From assembly GCA_035949275.1 (NCBI GenBank), contig DASZII010000005.1, forward strand, positions 1 to 27,351: a stretch of DNA of 27,351 nt, written 5' to 3'. The number at the start of each line of letters is the position of its first letter. Within the stretch, counting starts at the first letter, position 1. Shown here one piece after another: positions 1,940 to 9,419 of this stretch. Source of the DNA: Minisyncoccota bacterium. Its GTDB lineage: Bacteria; Patescibacteriota; Minisyncoccia; Phycocordibacterales; UBA2100. The notes under the pieces were generated by a model that saw only the letters and a list, made by a program, of their open reading frames with translations, had not been told where the DNA came from and did no database searches. Both the position numbers and the translations under genes were made by a program.

Positions 1940-3256
<1,317 letters not shown>

Positions 3257-3281
3257 TCCAGAGAGTGTAGCGCAAAAGCGC

Positions 3282-5309
3282 TTATTTCGCGACGACGGTC
3301 GCGTTCGCGGGAGTGAAGCCCGGATCGGGGACGATATTCATGCTGGCGCCCGATTCCGAGATCTGAGAGAGATTCGTGGTGATGTCGCTCGTGGGGATGA
3401 GAACAGCTCCAGTCGACGTCGCCCCAAAGGGGCCGCCCGAGACCGGGACCGTCACGCCGATCTCGGTCCCCGAAAGCGCGATGTTCTGGATGAGCGCGGG
3501 CTGCGAGCCGATCTGCGACGTCGAAGGCGTGAAGCCGATTGCGATCGCGGCCCGCCGCGGTGGGCTTCCGTTGACGCCCGTATCCGGTGCGATGGTACCG
3601 AGGTCCCAGATGATCTCTCCATTATTGGGATTCCCAGAAATGTTCTCGCCCGGCGGACCGTAGGTGCCGAGCCAGCGGACGTACGGCGGTAGGAATGCGG
3701 TTATCTTCGCATCCTGGATCTGATCGGTCGTATTGGTCACGGTAAACTCGATGCCGTAGGTAGTCTCGGTCCCGGCCTTGGGGGGCATTGGGCCGGAAGA
3801 ACCGAATGGGTCGGAGTAATAGAGACCCTGAGCCGCGAACTGCAGGCCGCTCGCGATACCGATGGTTTGCTGCGCGGTGCCCTGCAAATTCTGCACGGCA
3901 CCCGATTGGTCGGTCCGGTTGCCCGCCGCGCTCAGCGACATCACGATATGCGGGTTGGTCGTGCTGGCGAGCATTGCCGTCGTCGGCGCAGTGAACGTGA
4001 ATTTGAGCGTGCCGGAGCTTCCGGCCGGGATCGAAGAGAAAAGCCCGTTCGTCGTCGATTGGTCCCAATACATGGAGGAGTCGGTCGAGCGGTAAAAGCC
4101 GTTCGAGGAGCGCACCGTCGACCCGTCGATCTGCGCCCCGGAGAGTTTCGCGACGATGACCGCGTTATTGATCGCGGTGCCGAGGTTATTAACGTAATTT
4201 ATCGAGACCGAGACGCTTTCTCCCGGCGAAACAGTGGCCGACGATGACGCGCCGTTGACGAAAATGGAAAGTCCGAGGAACGAACTCGTGATGTCCATCG
4301 CATAACTTTCGCTCGAGAGCTGGGTCGTGACCGAGGTGGACGTGGCGGCTTGCCCGGTGCCGGCGACAATGTTGAACGTTCTCGTGTCGCCGGGGCTGCC
4401 GGTGAGCGTTCCCTGCACCGTGACCGAATGCGTCTGTCCCGGATTGAGCGTCCCGAGATTCCAGACCCCGGGAGCAGTCTGCGGCGGCGTGGCGGACGAC
4501 AGCGTGAAGCCAAAGGGATACGCGATCGAGAGCAACGCCCCCTGTATGGGTTGCGTCGCATTCGACGCGACGTTAATGGTGAACTGCACCGGCTGCCCCG
4601 AAACGGTCTGTGAGTTGCCGTCCACCGAGACCGAGACCGGCGACGAGCCGAACGTGAGCGTATAATCGCTCGACGCGGTGAATATCGAGTTGGAGCCCGG
4701 TAGATGATACTGGAGTTGGAATTTCACGTCCGATTGCTGCCCTGCGACGCCGGAGAAAACCGCGGGGATCTCGCCTTGCACGCTCGCCCCGGGCGCGATC
4801 GTGCCCAGGTCCTGCTCAAGCGTCGGCTCATCCTGCGAAAGATCTGCGACCGAGCGCGTGCCCTGCGGGAACGTGACGATGAGCGCGGAGAGATCGAGCG
4901 GCACCGTGTTGCGATTCGTCACGACTACTTGCAGCTCGGTGACGCCGCCGCTTTGTATCTCGGGCGGACCGGAGACGGCGATGTCGATGTTCTGCGGCGA
5001 AGAGGAAAGCGCGCCGCCGCCGAAGGCAAAATAATACGCGAAGAACCCGACCGCGCAGATGAAAAAGAGTACCGCTGCCCCAAGGATCCACCAGAGCGCC
5101 CTGCGCACGGTGCCGATTCCCCGCGGCGCGACCGTCGCTTTTGGCAGCGGGTCAGAGTCGTGGATGAAATCATCTCCCACGATGTGTTGCGGCGGCTCAA
5201 GGTTGCGCCGCTCTCTTGCCTTCATTTGTTCCGAAAGCGTGCGCGAATACATCGCCTCGCGCAAACGTTCCAATTTTTGGCTATCCTCGGGATTCTCCGC
5301 AGGAGGCAT
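3282..5309 (-). CDS. Large membrane-anchored surface protein with repeated beta-rich (Ig-like/DUF11-like) domains
   Basis: Charged N-terminus, one TM helix (ALWWILGAAVLFFICAVGFFAYYF), then ~570 aa rich in S/T/G with beta-strand patterns and W-x-L-G-T-(L/I)-x-P repeats. Start at MPPAENP, 6 nt after TATACT. Confidence 0.75.
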   Translation of the reverse strand: MPPAENPEDSQKLERLREAMYSRTLSEQMKARERRNLEPPQHIVGDDFIHDSDPLPKATVAPRGIGTVRRALWWILGAAVLFFICAVGFFAYYFAFGGGALSSSPQNIDIAVSGPPEIQSGGVTELQVVVTNRNTVPLDLSALIVTFPQGTRSVADLSQDEPTLEQDLGTIAPGASVQGEIPAVFSGVAGQQSDVKFQLQYHLPGSNSIFTASSDYTLTFGSSPVSVSVDGNSQTVSGQPVQFTINVASNATQPIQGALLSIAYPFGFTLSSATPPQTAPGVWNLGTLNPGQTHSVTVQGTLTGSPGDTRTFNIVAGTGQAATSTSVTTQLSSESYAMDITSSFLGLSIFVNGASSSATVSPGESVSVSINYVNNLGTAINNAVIVAKLSGAQIDGSTVRSSNGFYRSTDSSMYWDQSTTNGLFSSIPAGSSGTLKFTFTAPTTAMLASTTNPHIVMSLSAAGNRTDQSGAVQNLQGTAQQTIGIASGLQFAAQGLYYSDPFGSSGPMPPKAGTETTYGIEFTVTNTTDQIQDAKITAFLPPYVRWLGTYGPPGENISGNPNNGEIIWDLGTIAPDTGVNGSPPRRAAIAIGFTPSTSQIGSQPALIQNIALSGTEIGVTVPVSGGPFGATSTGAVLIPTSDITTNLSQISESGASMNIVPDPGFTPANATVVAK

Positions 5310-5356: not shown

Positions 5357-7141
5357 CTACTTCCGGCGCTTGCGGACAAAAAGCAGTTCTTTCGGCAGTC
5401 GGAAGAGGCCCTCATCGTTCTTTTTCTGTTCCATAAAATGCGCGATGAAGCCGACCGAGCGCGGAATGACGAAGAGCGCATTGAAGAATTCTGCGTCCGC
5501 GAGCTCCCGCAATTCCTCCCGCGAACATTTCTCGCACTCGGCGAGGATGTCGAGCGCGAGCGCCGCGATCACTCCGTCCACGTTCAAGATAAGAGAGCCG
5601 TTCTTTGCTGTCGTCACTTGTTCGACCGCTCGCGCAAACTCATAGTGCGGATGCTTTTTGAGAAGCGCAGCGAATTCCGCGATAGCGGCGACGCGCGGGT
5701 CCGGAATGCCGACGCGGTACTTTCGGTGTCCGATGCCGGCCAGCAATTTTCCTCCTTTCGTCCTTTTTTCAACGAACACGGCGGCGCTCTCTTGCGTGCC
5801 GGCACCGCTCAGCCACTGCTCCGCTGCCGTATTCACCGCGCCGCCGAAGCGCGGGCCGATGGTGAGCAGCCCGCTTGCGAGCGAAGAAACGAGATCCTTC
5901 CCCGCGCGCGCCGAGATCATCGTGTTGACCGCGCCCGAAACCTCGCCGCCATGGTCGATAAGAAGCTCGAACACGGCATCAGCGAAAGCGGCCGTTATCG
6001 GTGAGCGGAGCTTTCGATCCAAGAGCGATTCGAAAACGGAAGCGGCGAACCCGCTCTTTCGCGGAACGAGTTTTTTGTTCTTGACGAACACAGGGATCTC
6101 TCCCAGGTCCGCGACCTCGCGTGTCGAAAGGATACTTGCCCGACGATTCGTAAGCGGCTCCATGGCGGTCACCGTATCACTAAATTCCCCTGCGGGCAGT
6201 TCCTTCATTGCGACGAGGAATTCGGGGAACGTTTCCGGCGCGGTGGCACCCGCCTTGCGCAACGCGTCGCGTTTTGCCCGCGCGCTCTCATTGGGCTGCG
6301 CGACGAGCGCCTTCGCATGGCCGAATTGCATGTGTTCGTCGAACGCCTCGTCGATAATGCCGGCAACGTAGGCAAGCACCGGTTTCGTCAGTTTTTTCTT
6401 TTTAAGAAGCTCGACTATTTCGTATTCGTCGACGCCGCCGAGTTCGCCGAAATATACGATCGCCTGCGTTTCAGGATCACTTTGTGCAAGCGAGAGTACG
6501 TCCGTGAGCGACGCGATCGGAAAACGGTCGCCGCCGATCGCGATCGCGAACGAAACGCGCCTCCCGCTCTGCGCGACCGCGCGAATGAGCTCGCTCGTCA
6601 TGCCGCCGGAGGTCGATATGACCGCGATGGAGCCGGGGGTAGTTAGCTTCGAGGCCTCGATCTGTGCGATATCCGTGCCGCCGATCGCGCCGAGTTTCAA
6701 ACTACCGGGCACCAAGAGTCCGACGCCGGAGGGCCCTGCGATGAGCTTTTCCCGTCCGAACCGGCGGATGAGTTCGGTCGCATAACGTTCAGGAACATTC
6801 TCCGCAAAGATGTGGCCGCCGTGCGCGTTCGGGAACTCCGCGAAGAACGCGCAGGTCGAATCGAAAGCTCTGCGGCCGGATTGAACGTTCAACATCCAGA
6901 GGATGTTCCTGCGAAGCTTTTGCGGGACGCTCGGCAAGTCGGGGAAGCAAGGTATGAGCAGTTCCGACCGTCCGAAGAAGAACTTCTGCGCCTTGCGCGT
7001 CCCCGCAATGATGCCGACGACCGAAGGAGTCTTTCTGCCGCAGAGATAGTCGAAGTCGAGTATCGACTGCACGATCTGCGGATGATTCCCGACGGCGAGT
7101 ATGCCCGCTTTCCCGCTCCGGATCTGTTCGAGCGCGTTCAT
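5357..7141 (-). CDS. aclA: ATP-citrate lyase alpha subunit (CoA-binding, CoA-ligase and citryl-CoA lyase domains)
   Basis: DFDYLCGR, GPSGVGLLVPG, STSGGMTSEL, GELGG, phospho-His motif QFGHA, and citrate-synthase-like DHGGEVSGA, GIGHR, LNVDG, RSVGFIAH. Confidence 0.93.
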   Translation of the reverse strand: MNALEQIRSGKAGILAVGNHPQIVQSILDFDYLCGRKTPSVVGIIAGTRKAQKFFFGRSELLIPCFPDLPSVPQKLRRNILWMLNVQSGRRAFDSTCAFFAEFPNAHGGHIFAENVPERYATELIRRFGREKLIAGPSGVGLLVPGSLKLGAIGGTDIAQIEASKLTTPGSIAVISTSGGMTSELIRAVAQSGRRVSFAIAIGGDRFPIASLTDVLSLAQSDPETQAIVYFGELGGVDEYEIVELLKKKKLTKPVLAYVAGIIDEAFDEHMQFGHAKALVAQPNESARAKRDALRKAGATAPETFPEFLVAMKELPAGEFSDTVTAMEPLTNRRASILSTREVADLGEIPVFVKNKKLVPRKSGFAASVFESLLDRKLRSPITAAFADAVFELLIDHGGEVSGAVNTMISARAGKDLVSSLASGLLTIGPRFGGAVNTAAEQWLSGAGTQESAAVFVEKRTKGGKLLAGIGHRKYRVGIPDPRVAAIAEFAALLKKHPHYEFARAVEQVTTAKNGSLILNVDGVIAALALDILAECEKCSREELRELADAEFFNALFVIPRSVGFIAHFMEQKKNDEGLFRLPKELLFVRKRRK

Positions 7142-8316
7142 ATGGCTTTGATGGCGTCCGCGATCGCGCCCGTGATGACCGAGTCGGAGCCGGAGATCGA
7201 TCCGAACATCTTTTCACGTTTGAGAAAATCGCGCATGAGCTCGAGCCCGGCACGCTCGTTCGGCCCACCGCGCCGTACGAACACCTTTATTCTTTGTTCA
7301 CGGATCTTCGGAGCGAATTCTGAAAGCGCATCGATGATGCCGGCGAATGTCTTTTGAATATCGGTAAAGTTCGCGACGCCGCCCGCGATGACGAGTGCTT
7401 TTCGGCCCGAGGCCGGTCCGCCTCGGGCGGATTTCGGCCTCGCACGCAACATGAGTTGTATGATCTCTTTGGCGTACAAATACGTTTCCTCACGCGACGG
7501 GCCGCCGCTGTATTCGCCATAATTCCCTATCAACTTGCCCGCTCCTTCGAGTTCCGCTTCATCGGCGATCACAATGGAGCCGCCACCGCCCGACAAAAGA
7601 AAAAATAATGAACCGTTCGGGTTAACGACGGATAATTTGAGAGAGGCAGGAGTCGTTTTCTGCAGGTCCTCGACCCGCGTTTCCGCCGGATGCTTCGTTT
7701 TTGACTTTACAATGTCTCGTTCGCTCCATGAATCGACGAAGAATTCGCCGGCACTGTCGACGAGACAAGCGGCGTCCAGCAAATGCGCTTGTCCTTTTTG
7801 AATGACGAACGGGTTGATCTCGAGGAACGCGAAAAAATTCTTATGGAATGCTTCAAGAAGCTGTCGCAAAAACTCCTGCGGGATCTTTGTGGCCCGCGCG
7901 ACCTTCACAATGTCGGGATCGCTCCCGACAATGTACGTTTTTACTTTTTCCGGATGCGCCTCGATATCAATCCCGCCCTCCCCCGCATGCAATATGCGGA
8001 TGCCCTCGCGCACGCGCTCGAGCGAGAGGTACTGCTCTTCCTCCGGCCTATGCAGCACGAGCGGCTCAAGTAAAAATTGTGAGAAGCCCTTCTTCTTCCA
8101 TTCAGAGAACTTACGCGTGGCTTGTGCGGGCGATACGCCGACCGCAACAAGTCCTTGTTTAAAGCGCTTTTTTATACCTTGGTCGACCTTGACGACCAAG
8201 GTACCCTTCGAAGCTTTAGCGGAGTAGGGCTGCCCTGCACGAACCGACACTCCTTTATAAGCGTCGCCGAGTAATATCTTCTTCGCCCGATATTCGCTGA
8301 TCTTGACCCGGGCCAT
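7138..8316 (-). CDS. aclB: ATP-citrate lyase beta subunit (ATP-grasp and citrate-binding domains)
   Basis: KISEYRAK, VVKVDQGIKKRFKQGLV, FLEINP, SGGGGS, NYGEYSGGP, GGVANFTD and VRRGGPN motifs. ATGA overlap with aclA. Confidence 0.93.
   Translation of the reverse strand: MARVKISEYRAKKILLGDAYKGVSVRAGQPYSAKASKGTLVVKVDQGIKKRFKQGLVAVGVSPAQATRKFSEWKKKGFSQFLLEPLVLHRPEEEQYLSLERVREGIRILHAGEGGIDIEAHPEKVKTYIVGSDPDIVKVARATKIPQEFLRQLLEAFHKNFFAFLEINPFVIQKGQAHLLDAACLVDSAGEFFVDSWSERDIVKSKTKHPAETRVEDLQKTTPASLKLSVVNPNGSLFFLLSGGGGSIVIADEAELEGAGKLIGNYGEYSGGPSREETYLYAKEIIQLMLRARPKSARGGPASGRKALVIAGGVANFTDIQKTFAGIIDALSEFAPKIREQRIKVFVRRGGPNERAGLELMRDFLKREKMFGSISGSDSVITGAIADAIKAI
7402..7431. repeat. 30-bp palindromic element in frame in aclB (encodes SARGGPASGR)
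   Basis: Perfect 9-bp arms GCCCGAGGC/GCCTCGGGC. Built from two 15-nt hairpin units. Length is a multiple of 3. Confidence 0.6.
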
Positions 8317-8319
8317 AGT

Positions 8320-8757
8320 TTAGAGTTTTAACCGATACACGTTCGTTTCTTTGTGTTCGAAGCCAAATTTCTGATATAAACGATTCGCCGCAATCCGCGA
8401 CGGCCGGGTCGACAACTCGATAGTTTTCAGCTTCTTCGAACGCGCAACGTTAAGTAGTTTTTGCGTGAGTTTTTCGCCGATGCCCCGCCCTCGATGATCG
8501 GCATCGACGATCATGTCCTCAAGGTAGCCGTACTTCCCCCTTACTTTGTTGATGACGAACAGAAGACCAATCCCGATCATCTTTTTTCCGTCGCGCGCAA
8601 CGACGGCGATCGTATTCCGCTCGCCGACGATCGCCTGCAGCGTTTTCAAGCTGATTGGTTTATATTCGCTCGGATCATGAAGCAGCTGTCGCAGAAGATC
8701 GTTCGCGCTTTTCATGTCCGCTGCCTGAGCAGTCGAAAATCTCGAGATCCTTATCAT
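8320..8757 (-). CDS. GNAT family acetyltransferase, glucosamine-6-phosphate N-acetyltransferase (GNA1)-like
   Basis: GYLEDMIVDADHRGRGIGEKL (motif A) and AANRLYQKFGF. Start at MIRISRF (8757), 7 nt after TACTGT, gives a typical 145-aa GNAT. Ends 3 bp before aclB. Confidence 0.85.
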   Translation of the reverse strand: MIRISRFSTAQAADMKSANDLLRQLLHDPSEYKPISLKTLQAIVGERNTIAVVARDGKKMIGIGLLFVINKVRGKYGYLEDMIVDADHRGRGIGEKLTQKLLNVARSKKLKTIELSTRPSRIAANRLYQKFGFEHKETNVYRLKL

Positions 8758-8864
8758 GCGAGCAACAGTAACGCTATAAGACCGATTCAGCAAACCAATT
8801 CGACATATAAGAAAATATATGGTATTGGTTTCGTAGACGGATCGTCCGTCTTGGGAGAACAACG

Positions 8865-9368
8865 ATGTCATGGACATTGGTATGGGCGATTGTCGCAACG
8901 GTCGCTCTCGGAGTCTCGCTGATCGTGAATCATGGCTTGTGGACACGGCGACTGCCGTTCCCCGACTACGGCTCGTTCGTGCTCACGTGCCGCGACGAAA
9001 AAACATGGCGAGTGGTTATCCGGGCGCTGCAGCTGTACGGGATGCGACCGGTTTTCAGAGTCGATACTGCATTCGTTAAGCGTGCCATCTACCAGAATGG
9101 GCTCATCGTTAACTACGCCGTTCCGGCGTTGCTCGCCGAACTCGATAATGCAGGTGCGGCGTTCATGATCCCGAGCAGCGACCCATGGGAAGACGCACAG
9201 CGGCTGAAAAGCTTCCTCAGGACCAATTCGTCCAACGCCAAAGCTGTCGTCGAACCCGATATGGAACGCAAGGCCGTATTGGTACCGAGCAACGCGTTCG
9301 TCTCAGGAATGCTCGGGTTTCGCCTGCCTTTCACCAAGATGGGCAAGCCGCCGAAGTGGCACGACTGA
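8865..9368 (+). CDS. Hypothetical protein with N-terminal membrane anchor
   Basis: 167-aa ORF with a hydrophobic N-terminus, a GGAG upstream and a strong terminator directly downstream. Confidence 0.7.
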   Translation: MSWTLVWAIVATVALGVSLIVNHGLWTRRLPFPDYGSFVLTCRDEKTWRVVIRALQLYGMRPVFRVDTAFVKRAIYQNGLIVNYAVPALLAELDNAGAAFMIPSSDPWEDAQRLKSFLRTNSSNAKAVVEPDMERKAVLVPSNAFVSGMLGFRLPFTKMGKPPKWHD

Positions 9369-9384: not shown

Positions 9385-9419
9385 GTGCCCGCCGGAAGAT
9401 TCCGGCGGGCGCACTTTTT
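9385..9419 (+). terminator. Intrinsic terminator between convergent genes
   Basis: GTGCCCGCCGGA-AGAT-TCCGGCGGGCGC stem followed by a TTTTT tract. Confidence 0.8.

Follow-up and report, generated by a model that had tools for sequence, protein, structure and literature searches.

A GNAT acetyltransferase and ATP-citrate lyase operon in a soil Patescibacterium: a possible link to UDP-GlcNAc synthesis

Introduction

Two described ATP-citrate lyases (ACL) of the ACLY type are of relevance here, the human enzyme (PDB entry 6hxh) and the two-subunit ACLY-A/B of Methanothrix (Methanosaeta) concilii (6hxi and 6znw), while AclAB of Chlorobium limicola (6hxj) is a more distant relative. Among bacteria of the Candidate Phyla Radiation (CPR), a two-subunit, archaeal-like ACL of Gracilibacterium has been described as “rarely detected in CPR” and as acting on scavenged citrate (Sieber et al. 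2019, PMC6851277); aclAB genes have been reported to be enriched in metagenome-assembled genomes of Saccharimonadia (PMC12577380), and mis-annotated citrate-cleavage enzymes in CPR have been noted in a preprint. The published reports on CPR enzymes (PMC6851277, PMC12577380) make no mention of a linked acetyltransferase or of a connection to UDP-N-acetylglucosamine (UDP-GlcNAc). Here we describe an operon in which the two ACL genes, aclB and aclA, are led by a gene for an acetyltransferase of the GNAT family (GNAT1), at positions 5357 to 8757, on the minus strand, of a stretch of 27,351 nucleotides (contig DASZII010000005.1 of assembly GCA_035949275.1, hereafter the window). The window corresponds to contig C5 of a genome of 0.73 Mb in 80 contigs, 86% complete, which belongs to a soil Paceibacterota-type Patescibacterium.

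As in Gracilibacterium (PMC6851277), where the enzyme has been read as converting citrate to acetyl-coenzyme A (acetyl-CoA) plus oxaloacetate, the two-subunit ACL of the window is an orphan enzyme in a CPR organism with a reduced genome; unlike Gracilibacterium, for which 2-oxoacid:ferredoxin oxidoreductase (OFOR) and malic enzyme were proposed, the window genome is without both. The acetyl-CoA supply and the cell-wall precursor synthesis of ultra-small CPR bacteria are poorly understood, and the locus may bear on both: we lean towards a reading in which the operon makes acetyl-CoA from citrate for GNAT1, most likely for the acetylation of glucosamine (GlcN) phosphate toward UDP-GlcNAc. The presence of ACL in CPR was already known; what appears to be new is an ACL tied to an acetyltransferase within a hexosamine pathway in which GlmU is split. 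A literature search gave no paper connecting GlmU and GNATs with ACL in these organisms, and this wiring appears to be unpublished.

The operon and its ATP-citrate lyase

The features of the operon are the following, in the order of transcription.

8765..8770, minus strand: TACTGT hexamer, 7 nucleotides (nt) upstream from the start codon (ATG) of the GNAT gene; a weak candidate for the -10 box of a leaderless transcript.
8320..8757, minus strand: GNAT1, first gene of the operon, a GNAT of 145 amino acids (aa; PF00583, 70 bits); predicted, by its putative substrate, to be a hexosamine-phosphate N-acetyltransferase.
8317..8319, minus strand: spacer of 3 nt from the GNAT stop to the aclB start, read from the sequence.
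7138..8316, minus strand: aclB, ATP-citrate lyase beta subunit of 392 aa, with an ATP-grasp and a citrate-binding domain (PF16114, PF24948).
7138..7141, minus strand: 4-nt ATGA in which the stop codon of aclB overlaps the start codon of aclA, read from the sequence.
5357..7141, minus strand: aclA, alpha subunit of 594 aa, with a CoA-binding/ligase part that carries the phospho-His loop and a C-terminal citryl-CoA lyase domain (PF00549, PF00285).
6317..6319, minus strand: codon of AclA His275, the predicted catalytic phospho-histidine, by alignment with the FGHAGA loop of human ACLY.

An earlier reading of this DNA, made from its letters and translations without database searches (the sequence-only reading), had described a GNAT-aclB-aclA operon with a 3-bp gap, and this arrangement could be read off directly: the three open reading frames (ORFs) are co-directional at the positions it had given, and the GNAT stop codon, TAA, is followed after 3 nt by the ATG of aclB, a spacing that lies between 1 and 12 nt in most relatives as well. 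The ATGA overlap is consistent with translational coupling of aclB and aclA. The GNAT start is placed at the ATG at 8757, since 17 aligned homologues all begin with MI; the alternative of a longer, GTG-started ORF of 208 aa (8320-8946) was ruled out by the same alignment. The -10 box that had been assigned to the GNAT gene did not hold up beyond the TACTGT hexamer, which lies in the AT-rich, 107-nt divergent intergenic region (8758-8864): a scan for consensus promoters and terminators returned nothing on the operon strand that exceeded what shuffled sequence would give, and overall it performed at chance level.

The identification of the enzyme, a complete two-subunit ACL with its FGHA and citryl-CoA lyase motifs intact according to the sequence-only reading, was borne out by Pfam domains, ACLY alignments and motifs alike. 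AclB matches the ACL-specific citrate-binding domain PF16114 (161 bits) and the ATP-grasp domain PF24948 (99 bits), and its VANFT (314-318) and RRGGPN (348-353) motifs, both in the citrate-binding domain, align with the citrate loop of human ACLY. AclA matches PF00549 and PF00285, the latter at 88 bits; its residues 17-308 correspond to 502-793 of human ACLY, FGHA (His275) falls on the phospho-His FGHAGA loop of the human enzyme, and GIGHR (469-473) and NVDG (520-523), in the citryl-CoA-lyase domain, have their counterparts in human ACLY. FGHA is kept in all 120 of the 120 closest AclA homologues, which belong to Paceibacterota, Kaiserbacteria, Liptonbacteria and comparable groups and which NCBI mostly names “citrate/2-methylcitrate synthase” or “hypothetical protein”. 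By its sequence, AclBA is thus a genuine ACLY-type ATP-citrate lyase.

Searches against the PDB place this enzyme much closer to the archaeal and eukaryotic type than to that of Chlorobium: AclB scored 188 bits with human ACLY, 177 with M. concilii and 104 with C. limicola, and AclA scored 342 (over residues 17-308 and 382-584), 334 and 205 bits, respectively. Domain order, phospho-His loop and citryl-CoA-lyase residues are the same as in the M. concilii and human enzymes, and the split into subunits is that of M. concilii ACLY-A/B. With respect to human ACLY, AclB has an extra 8-residue insertion; a 30-bp double hairpin pointed out in the sequence-only reading, at 7402-7431 (aclB residues ~296-305), lies within it. 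The context sets the window enzyme apart from known ACLY systems, its host having neither a tricarboxylic acid (TCA) or reductive TCA cycle nor a fatty-acid context.

Association of ACL with acetyltransferases

Linkage between ACL and acetyltransferases was examined in a sample of 61 genomes of the genus. ACL occurs in 18 of these; 16 genomes belonging to other families of the same order had none. GNAT1, the family of the window, occurs in 42 of the 61 (114-191 bits), and a second family unrelated to it, GNAT2, whose members are ~200 aa long and highly conserved and give weak matches to PF13302 and PF00583, occurs in 11. All but one of the 18 ACL-bearing genomes carry at least one of the two (GNAT1 in 10, GNAT2 in 8, one genome having both in tandem), and the exception is a badly fragmented assembly. 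Wherever the assemblies allow a look, the GNAT gene adjoins aclBA, in several gene orders: recO-GNAT1-aclBA, recO-GNAT2-aclBA, GNAT2-GNAT1-aclBA, aclBA-GNAT1, aclBA-GNAT2, and GNAT1-aclBA in other contexts. Within the genus, GNAT is thus a common gene and ACL an accessory one, found next to a GNAT whenever it is present. One congener (L017, G013:C66) has a 250-aa ORF inserted between aclB and aclA (2911-3663), in which a glycine motif like that of class-I S-adenosylmethionine methyltransferases was seen by eye.

Beyond the genus, PF16114 was detected in 27 of 401 sampled Patescibacteria genomes, and 80 loci with AclB were fetched from Paceibacteria, Saccharimonadia and Microgenomates-like lineages. 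GNAT1 or GNAT2 lies within 150 bp of aclBA in 42 of the 80, and a further 4 have GNAT1 overlapping an aclB start that was over-called; this makes 46 loci in which one of the two families touches aclBA, in several arrangements, as compared with just 9 weaker matches elsewhere in the 661 kb of flanking DNA. Variants across the phylum include a divergent orientation, a Tdh-Kbl-aclBA-GNAT2 cluster in which GNAT2 is downstream of aclA, and two fusions of GNAT2 to an N-terminal HAD-family domain (L025:4826-5998 and L043:4850-5998), each preceded by a gene for YvcK, a protein that binds UDP-GlcNAc. The sequence-only reading had called for a check of GNAT-aclBA synteny across Patescibacteria; the synteny proved to be conserved, with two GNAT families and several gene orders.

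The architecture of these loci varies in other respects. The aclA gene of Microgenomates-like lineages (L084-L096, L185-L193) is split into a CoA-ligase half of ~300-330 aa and a citryl-CoA-lyase half of ~245-275 aa, which makes for a three-gene, unfused ACL, and a Band_7/SPFH gene often stands directly upstream of aclB. A group of Saccharimonadia loci (L049, L057, L060, L061, L067, L069, L079) has GNAT1-aclBA divergent from tsaE, a short tsaB-like gene and RNase Y, with type IV pilus genes (PilB, PilC and PilM families) downstream of aclA; these neighbours were confirmed with Pfam in L057 (tsaE) and L049 (tsaB-like gene, RNase Y and pilus genes), and assigned in the other loci by matching ORF sizes.

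A possibly divided hexosamine pathway

The second line of evidence comes from the pathway to UDP-GlcNAc, whose acetylation step, carried out in bacteria by the bifunctional GlmU (GlcN-1-phosphate acetyltransferase and GlcNAc-1-phosphate uridylyltransferase), is the step proposed for GNAT1. No full-length GlmU scored above cut-off in any of the 61 genus genomes or the 401 Patescibacteria genomes, and the GlmU acetyltransferase domain, which the sequence-only reading had suggested might be missing, gave no match above cut-off in the 61 genus genomes; in the phylum sample, stand-alone acetyltransferase halves of the left-handed beta-helix (LbH) type were found in a few of the 401. The clear matches correspond to the uridylyltransferase half, which stands alone in 81 of the 401 genomes (positions 2-245, ~250-270 aa, strong match), while nearly all genus members have a weaker, nucleotidyltransferase-only GlmU-like protein that falls below cut-off. 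The absence of full-length GlmU from the sampled genomes thus appears as a general feature of the phylum. GlmS occurs in 56 of the 61 genus genomes and the GlmU acetyltransferase domain was not found, so that the N-acetylation step is without a recognised enzyme in these genomes, and the two uncharacterised GNAT families are candidates for this missing N-acetyltransferase. Among the five ACL-bearing genus genomes searched for metabolic genes (see below), a MurA-like gene was seen in 4 and a GlmM-like mutase in 3, both below cut-offs.

Genes of this pathway also adjoin ACL. In one genome (G290), the gene immediately upstream of aclB encodes the C-terminal acetyltransferase domain of GlmU on its own (233 bits, positions 249-438), and in another (G335) an Arch_glmU C-terminal domain (138 bits) takes the same position. 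Three unrelated acetyltransferase types therefore occupy the same slot beside ACL, and one of them is an established GlcN-1-phosphate (GlcN-1-P) acetyltransferase type. A third genome (G094) has, on one strand, GlmU-NT, GlmS (786 bits), a HAD protein belonging to the beta-phosphoglucomutase family, YvcK, a short gene resembling GNAT1, aclB and both halves of aclA; clusters similar to it occur in G356 and G298, and GlmS adjoins aclBA in three Saccharimonadia loci. The separate HAD protein of G094 is itself a candidate hexosamine-phosphate mutase or phosphatase. It is of note that the acetyltransferase of bacterial GlmU is a left-handed beta-helix and GNAT1 has the GNAT fold, so that GNAT1 would be a functional analogue of it at most, and not a member of its family.

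Acetyl-CoA metabolism of the host

Searches for metabolic genes covered the window genome (86% complete) and four ACL-bearing congeners (89-99% complete). Aconitase, POR_N of pyruvate:ferredoxin oxidoreductase (PFOR), phosphotransacetylase (Pta), AMP-forming acetyl-CoA synthetase (ACS, AcsA) and ADP-forming acetyl-CoA synthetase (ACD) were found in none of the five, nothing above cut-off was seen for lactate or malate dehydrogenase (LDH, MDH), and acetate kinase (AckA) was found in one. Since aconitase, PFOR, Pta, ACS and ACD were not found, ACL is the sole acetyl-CoA-forming enzyme recognised in the five genomes, in which Kbl, pyruvate dehydrogenase and pyruvate formate-lyase were not searched for. 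The check for reductive TCA genes that the sequence-only reading had proposed gave aconitase and POR_N in none of the five, with one marginal POR_N match among the 61 genus genomes; isocitrate dehydrogenase and fumarate reductase were not part of this search. The claim that the window itself holds no further TCA gene also stood, none being recognised among its ORFs, some of which were annotated in this analysis and others in the sequence-only reading. A complementary source of acetyl-CoA in ACL-less relatives was considered as well, and no anti-correlation between ACL and PFOR could be demonstrated because PFOR is essentially missing across the whole genus.

The genus also stands out in its CoA metabolism, in that dephospho-CoA kinase (CoaE, PF01121) was detected in none of the 61 genomes. 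Its uniform absence makes it uninformative as to ACL or GNAT status; the same genomes still encode CoA-dependent enzymes, which implies either CoA salvage or a non-canonical kinase. Because no CoaE was found, the host probably depends on a small, scavenged CoA pool.

Relationship of GNAT1 to known acetyltransferases

The AlphaFold2 model of GNAT1 has standard GNAT topology (pLDDT 94), and in the family alignment R89, G92, G94, R121 and Y128 are invariant, with the acetyl-CoA motif A represented by RGRGIG at 89-94. The label “GNA1-like”, given in the sequence-only reading, finds weak support in sequence and fold. Foldseek ranks GNA1 of Trypanosoma brucei first (3fb3/3i3g, E = 5e-10; entries assigned through a table in PMC4964394), and a PDB profile search ranks 6yug second, at 68.7 bits and with an end-to-end alignment; the residue numbering of this entry matches exactly that of the Cryptosporidium parvum GNA1 of PMC7587441. 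The GNA1 enzymes of human, plant, worm and trypanosome score lower, at 38-53 bits. Other GNATs score as well or better in both searches (see below), and as a firm sequence-based label the term was set aside, GNA1 structures being matched no better than other GNATs. The resemblance of GNAT1 to GNA1 is at most suggestive.

Like eukaryotic GNA1 (GlcN-6-phosphate N-acetyltransferase, EC 2.3.1.4), including the C. parvum enzyme, GNAT1 is a small GNAT (~145 aa) that has a catalytic Tyr but lacks a general base, and its host has GlmS and no detected GlmU acetyltransferase. The catalytic Tyr, Y128, aligns with Y127 of C. parvum GNA1. The GlcN-6-phosphate (GlcN6P)-binding residues of that enzyme are R73, H81, R113, T117, E119 and R141 (PMC7587441); a basic residue near 73, Thr/Ser at 117 and R/K at 141 are kept in part of the GNAT1 family. 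GNAT1 differs in several of the sugar-binding residues and has a conserved loop of its own, (T/S)SRPxR, with a conserved R118 and the invariant R121, the latter of which may suit an anionic substrate. The lack of the general-base Glu (the RimI Glu103 position) would fit a low-pKa amine such as GlcN6P (PMC4964394). Since GNA1 activity arose more than once with different residues (PMC5838249), apicomplexan GNA1 itself being independently evolved, exact matching to GNA1 residues is of limited value.

Proposed role and alternative explanations

On the reading that we favour, AclBA would act in the cleavage direction, converting imported citrate, ATP and CoA to acetyl-CoA, oxaloacetate, ADP and Pi. 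GNAT1, presumably co-translated from the same message, would use the acetyl-CoA and release CoA for the next turnover of ACL; its most likely acceptor would be GlcN6P or GlcN-1-P, which corresponds to the N-acetylation step of UDP-GlcNAc synthesis, and the pair would cycle the small scavenged CoA pool toward this product. We infer the direction of ACL in vivo, the uptake of citrate and the substrate of GNAT1. The sequence-only reading had arrived at a similar proposal, with scavenged citrate supplying acetyl-CoA to the GNAT toward UDP-GlcNAc instead of serving the reductive TCA cycle, and the synteny, the lack of detected reductive TCA genes, the missing GlmU acetyltransferase and the hexosamine clusters lend support to it, the GNAT substrate being a prediction.

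A wider scheme can be offered more tentatively. Many Patescibacteria may have a split, partly eukaryote-like UDP-GlcNAc route, consisting of GlmS, a stand-alone acetyltransferase (independently recruited GNAT1, GNAT2 or LbH), a mutase and a uridylyltransferase-only GlmU half, and a subset of them may wire the acetyltransferase to an ACLY-type lyase, with acetyl groups drawn from host or environmental citrate through a tiny, recycled CoA pool. Should this be true, GNAT1 and GNAT2 would represent new, convergently evolved families of hexosamine-phosphate N-acetyltransferases. On the reading favoured for the operon, the orphan ATP-citrate lyase would be a source of acetyl groups in the making of amino sugars; the cell would have to obtain citrate, and possibly CoA, from its host or surroundings, a dependency that could be of help in cultivation.

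A number of observations weigh against the role proposed for the operon. GNAT1 is present in 32 of the 43 ACL-less genus genomes, and therefore has a function independent of ACL; its neighbours in these genomes are unrelated, being either the recO locus or a nuclease and a ThrC-like gene. Conversely, eight genus genomes carry neither GNAT1 nor GNAT2, and six of the eight keep GlmS, so that these GNATs are not the sole route to N-acetylation. Such genomes may rely on GlcNAc salvage, for which microautoradiography in Saccharimonadia is cited in PMC9530719, or on another enzyme; the co-occurrence of GlmS and GNAT was dropped as an argument, GlmS being missing in 2 of 8 GNAT-less and 3 of 53 GNAT-bearing genomes, numbers that are too small. 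Those GNATs that lie in glmS-yvcK clusters have a length of just 110-119 aa and give weak scores, 42-70 bits, with the GNAT1 profile. As regards the protein itself, AAC(3)-Ia ties with T. brucei GNA1 in Foldseek, the uncharacterised Bacillus GNAT 1z4e ranks first in the PDB profile search (76.5 bits), above any GNA1, and with respect to C. parvum GNA1, H81 is replaced by D, R113 by T/S/K and E119 by R. No consumer of oxaloacetate was found in the search for LDH and MDH, and no dedicated citrate transporter (neither CitMHS nor DASS) among the 19 of the 27 ORFs rich in transmembrane segments that were checked in the genome, where four carriers of the major facilitator superfamily are the only candidate importers of organic substrates. 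The public sequencing runs that hold the window sequence are soil-metagenome DNA runs only. Lastly, in Saccharimonadia GNAT1 stands next to tsaE and a tsaB-like gene and diverges from them, a neighbourhood typical of rimI.

This last point leads to the alternative that survives best, although we regard it as unlikely: the role of ACL would be unchanged, and GNAT1 would be a protein N-acetyltransferase, a divergent relative of RimI or the NAT enzymes acting on bS18 or on many proteins. RimI, the N-alpha-acetyltransferase of ribosomal protein bS18 (TIGR01575), is the best NCBIfam match of GNAT1 (51.4 bits; relatives 41-51 bits), the two are similar in size, Naa30, Naa50 and RimI structures are among the PDB matches, and GNAT1 is the best match to the RimI model in 4 of 5 genomes searched, where no true RimI was found; the retention of GNAT1 in 32 genomes without ACL and the tsaE neighbourhood would also be expected on these grounds. 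RimI of Salmonella typhimurium employs Glu103 as general base and Tyr115 as general acid (PMC4964394). In an hhalign comparison with E. coli RimI, Tyr115 corresponds to Y128 of GNAT1, but Glu103 corresponds to S116, which is Thr in most members of the family, and the score remains below the curated cut-off of 86.4; identity of GNAT1 with RimI itself was ruled out for these two reasons. Protein acetylation moreover leaves unexplained both the LbH GlmU-type enzymes upstream of aclB and the glmS-yvcK-GNAT-aclBA clusters.

We hold it to be improbable that the GNAT is a regulator, acetylating a lysine of ACL in tune with acetyl-CoA, in the manner of AcuA/Pat on acetyl-CoA synthetase or PCAF on human ACLY. 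Such a function would account for the near-universal and tightly coupled adjacency of GNAT and aclBA, for which acuA, adjoining acsA, provides a precedent, and for the fact that GNAT2 is nearly confined to genomes with ACL (8 of 11, plus another case that lies at the edge of a contig). It is at odds with the presence of intact GNAT1 in the 32 ACL-less genomes, with the replacement of the GNAT in two lineages by LbH GlcN-1-P acetyltransferase domains, which are small-molecule enzymes, and with the presence of GlmS, YvcK and GlmU-NT in the same clusters.

About as improbable is a purely positional adjacency, in which ACL would be a mobile accessory cassette that lands beside a common housekeeping GNAT. 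The genus does display four locus states (recO-GNAT1-aclBA, recO-GNAT2-aclBA, recO-GNAT1 and recO alone), and on the GNAT1 tree the ACL label requires 6 changes by parsimony, at least 3 of them forced by well-supported branches. Chance insertion does not, however, predict that the adjacency should recur with two unrelated GNAT families and with LbH enzymes, in upstream, downstream and divergent positions, and in different contexts and classes. Finally, the ACL reaction being reversible, the enzyme could run in the direction of synthesis, as a citrate synthase that yields ATP, like that of Desulfobacter postgatei, or within a reductive TCA cycle, which is scarcely credible in genomes where no source of acetyl-CoA or oxaloacetate, no aconitase, no PFOR or 2-oxoglutarate:ferredoxin oxidoreductase (OGOR) and no MDH was found, and where the cycle is close to refuted. 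The two alternatives named in the sequence-only reading, regulation of ACL by acetylation and ACL in reverse, are thus less well supported than a supply of acetyl-CoA to GNAT1 for hexosamine acetylation.

Neighbouring genes and other observations

A 167-aa ORF to which no function was assigned (8865-9368, plus strand) lies between recO and the GNAT gene, divergent from the latter, and is followed by a strong terminator-like hairpin with a 12-bp stem at 9385-9412. Pfam gave no match for it, nor did tblastn against seven syntenic relatives, in which recO and the GNAT gene are separated by just 20-330 bp. The window GNAT1 groups on the tree (100/97) with two ACL-less genomes, its nearest relatives being G049 and G054, which are not its synteny partners; together, the ORF and this odd placement suggest a local replacement of the segment.

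ACL-less congeners in which GNAT1 lies off the recO locus (L147, L148, L150, L152, L155-L157) often have a threonine-synthase-like gene (PF14821 and PF00291) following it on the same strand, and a nuclease/VanY/IF3/L20 block on its other side.

The window genome encodes a second GNAT of 189 aa (G000:C42:8534-9103, L183; PF00583, 43 bits), which is unlinked to ACL; this protein and GNAT1 are the only GNATs that the GNAT1 and GNAT2 profiles detect in the assembly. The same genome also carries a heme-copper oxidase subunit I (G000:C63:3396-5375, L165; PF00115, 479 bits), unusual in a 0.7-Mb Patescibacterium; components of aerobic metabolism have, however, been reported for soil CPR (PMC8407418).

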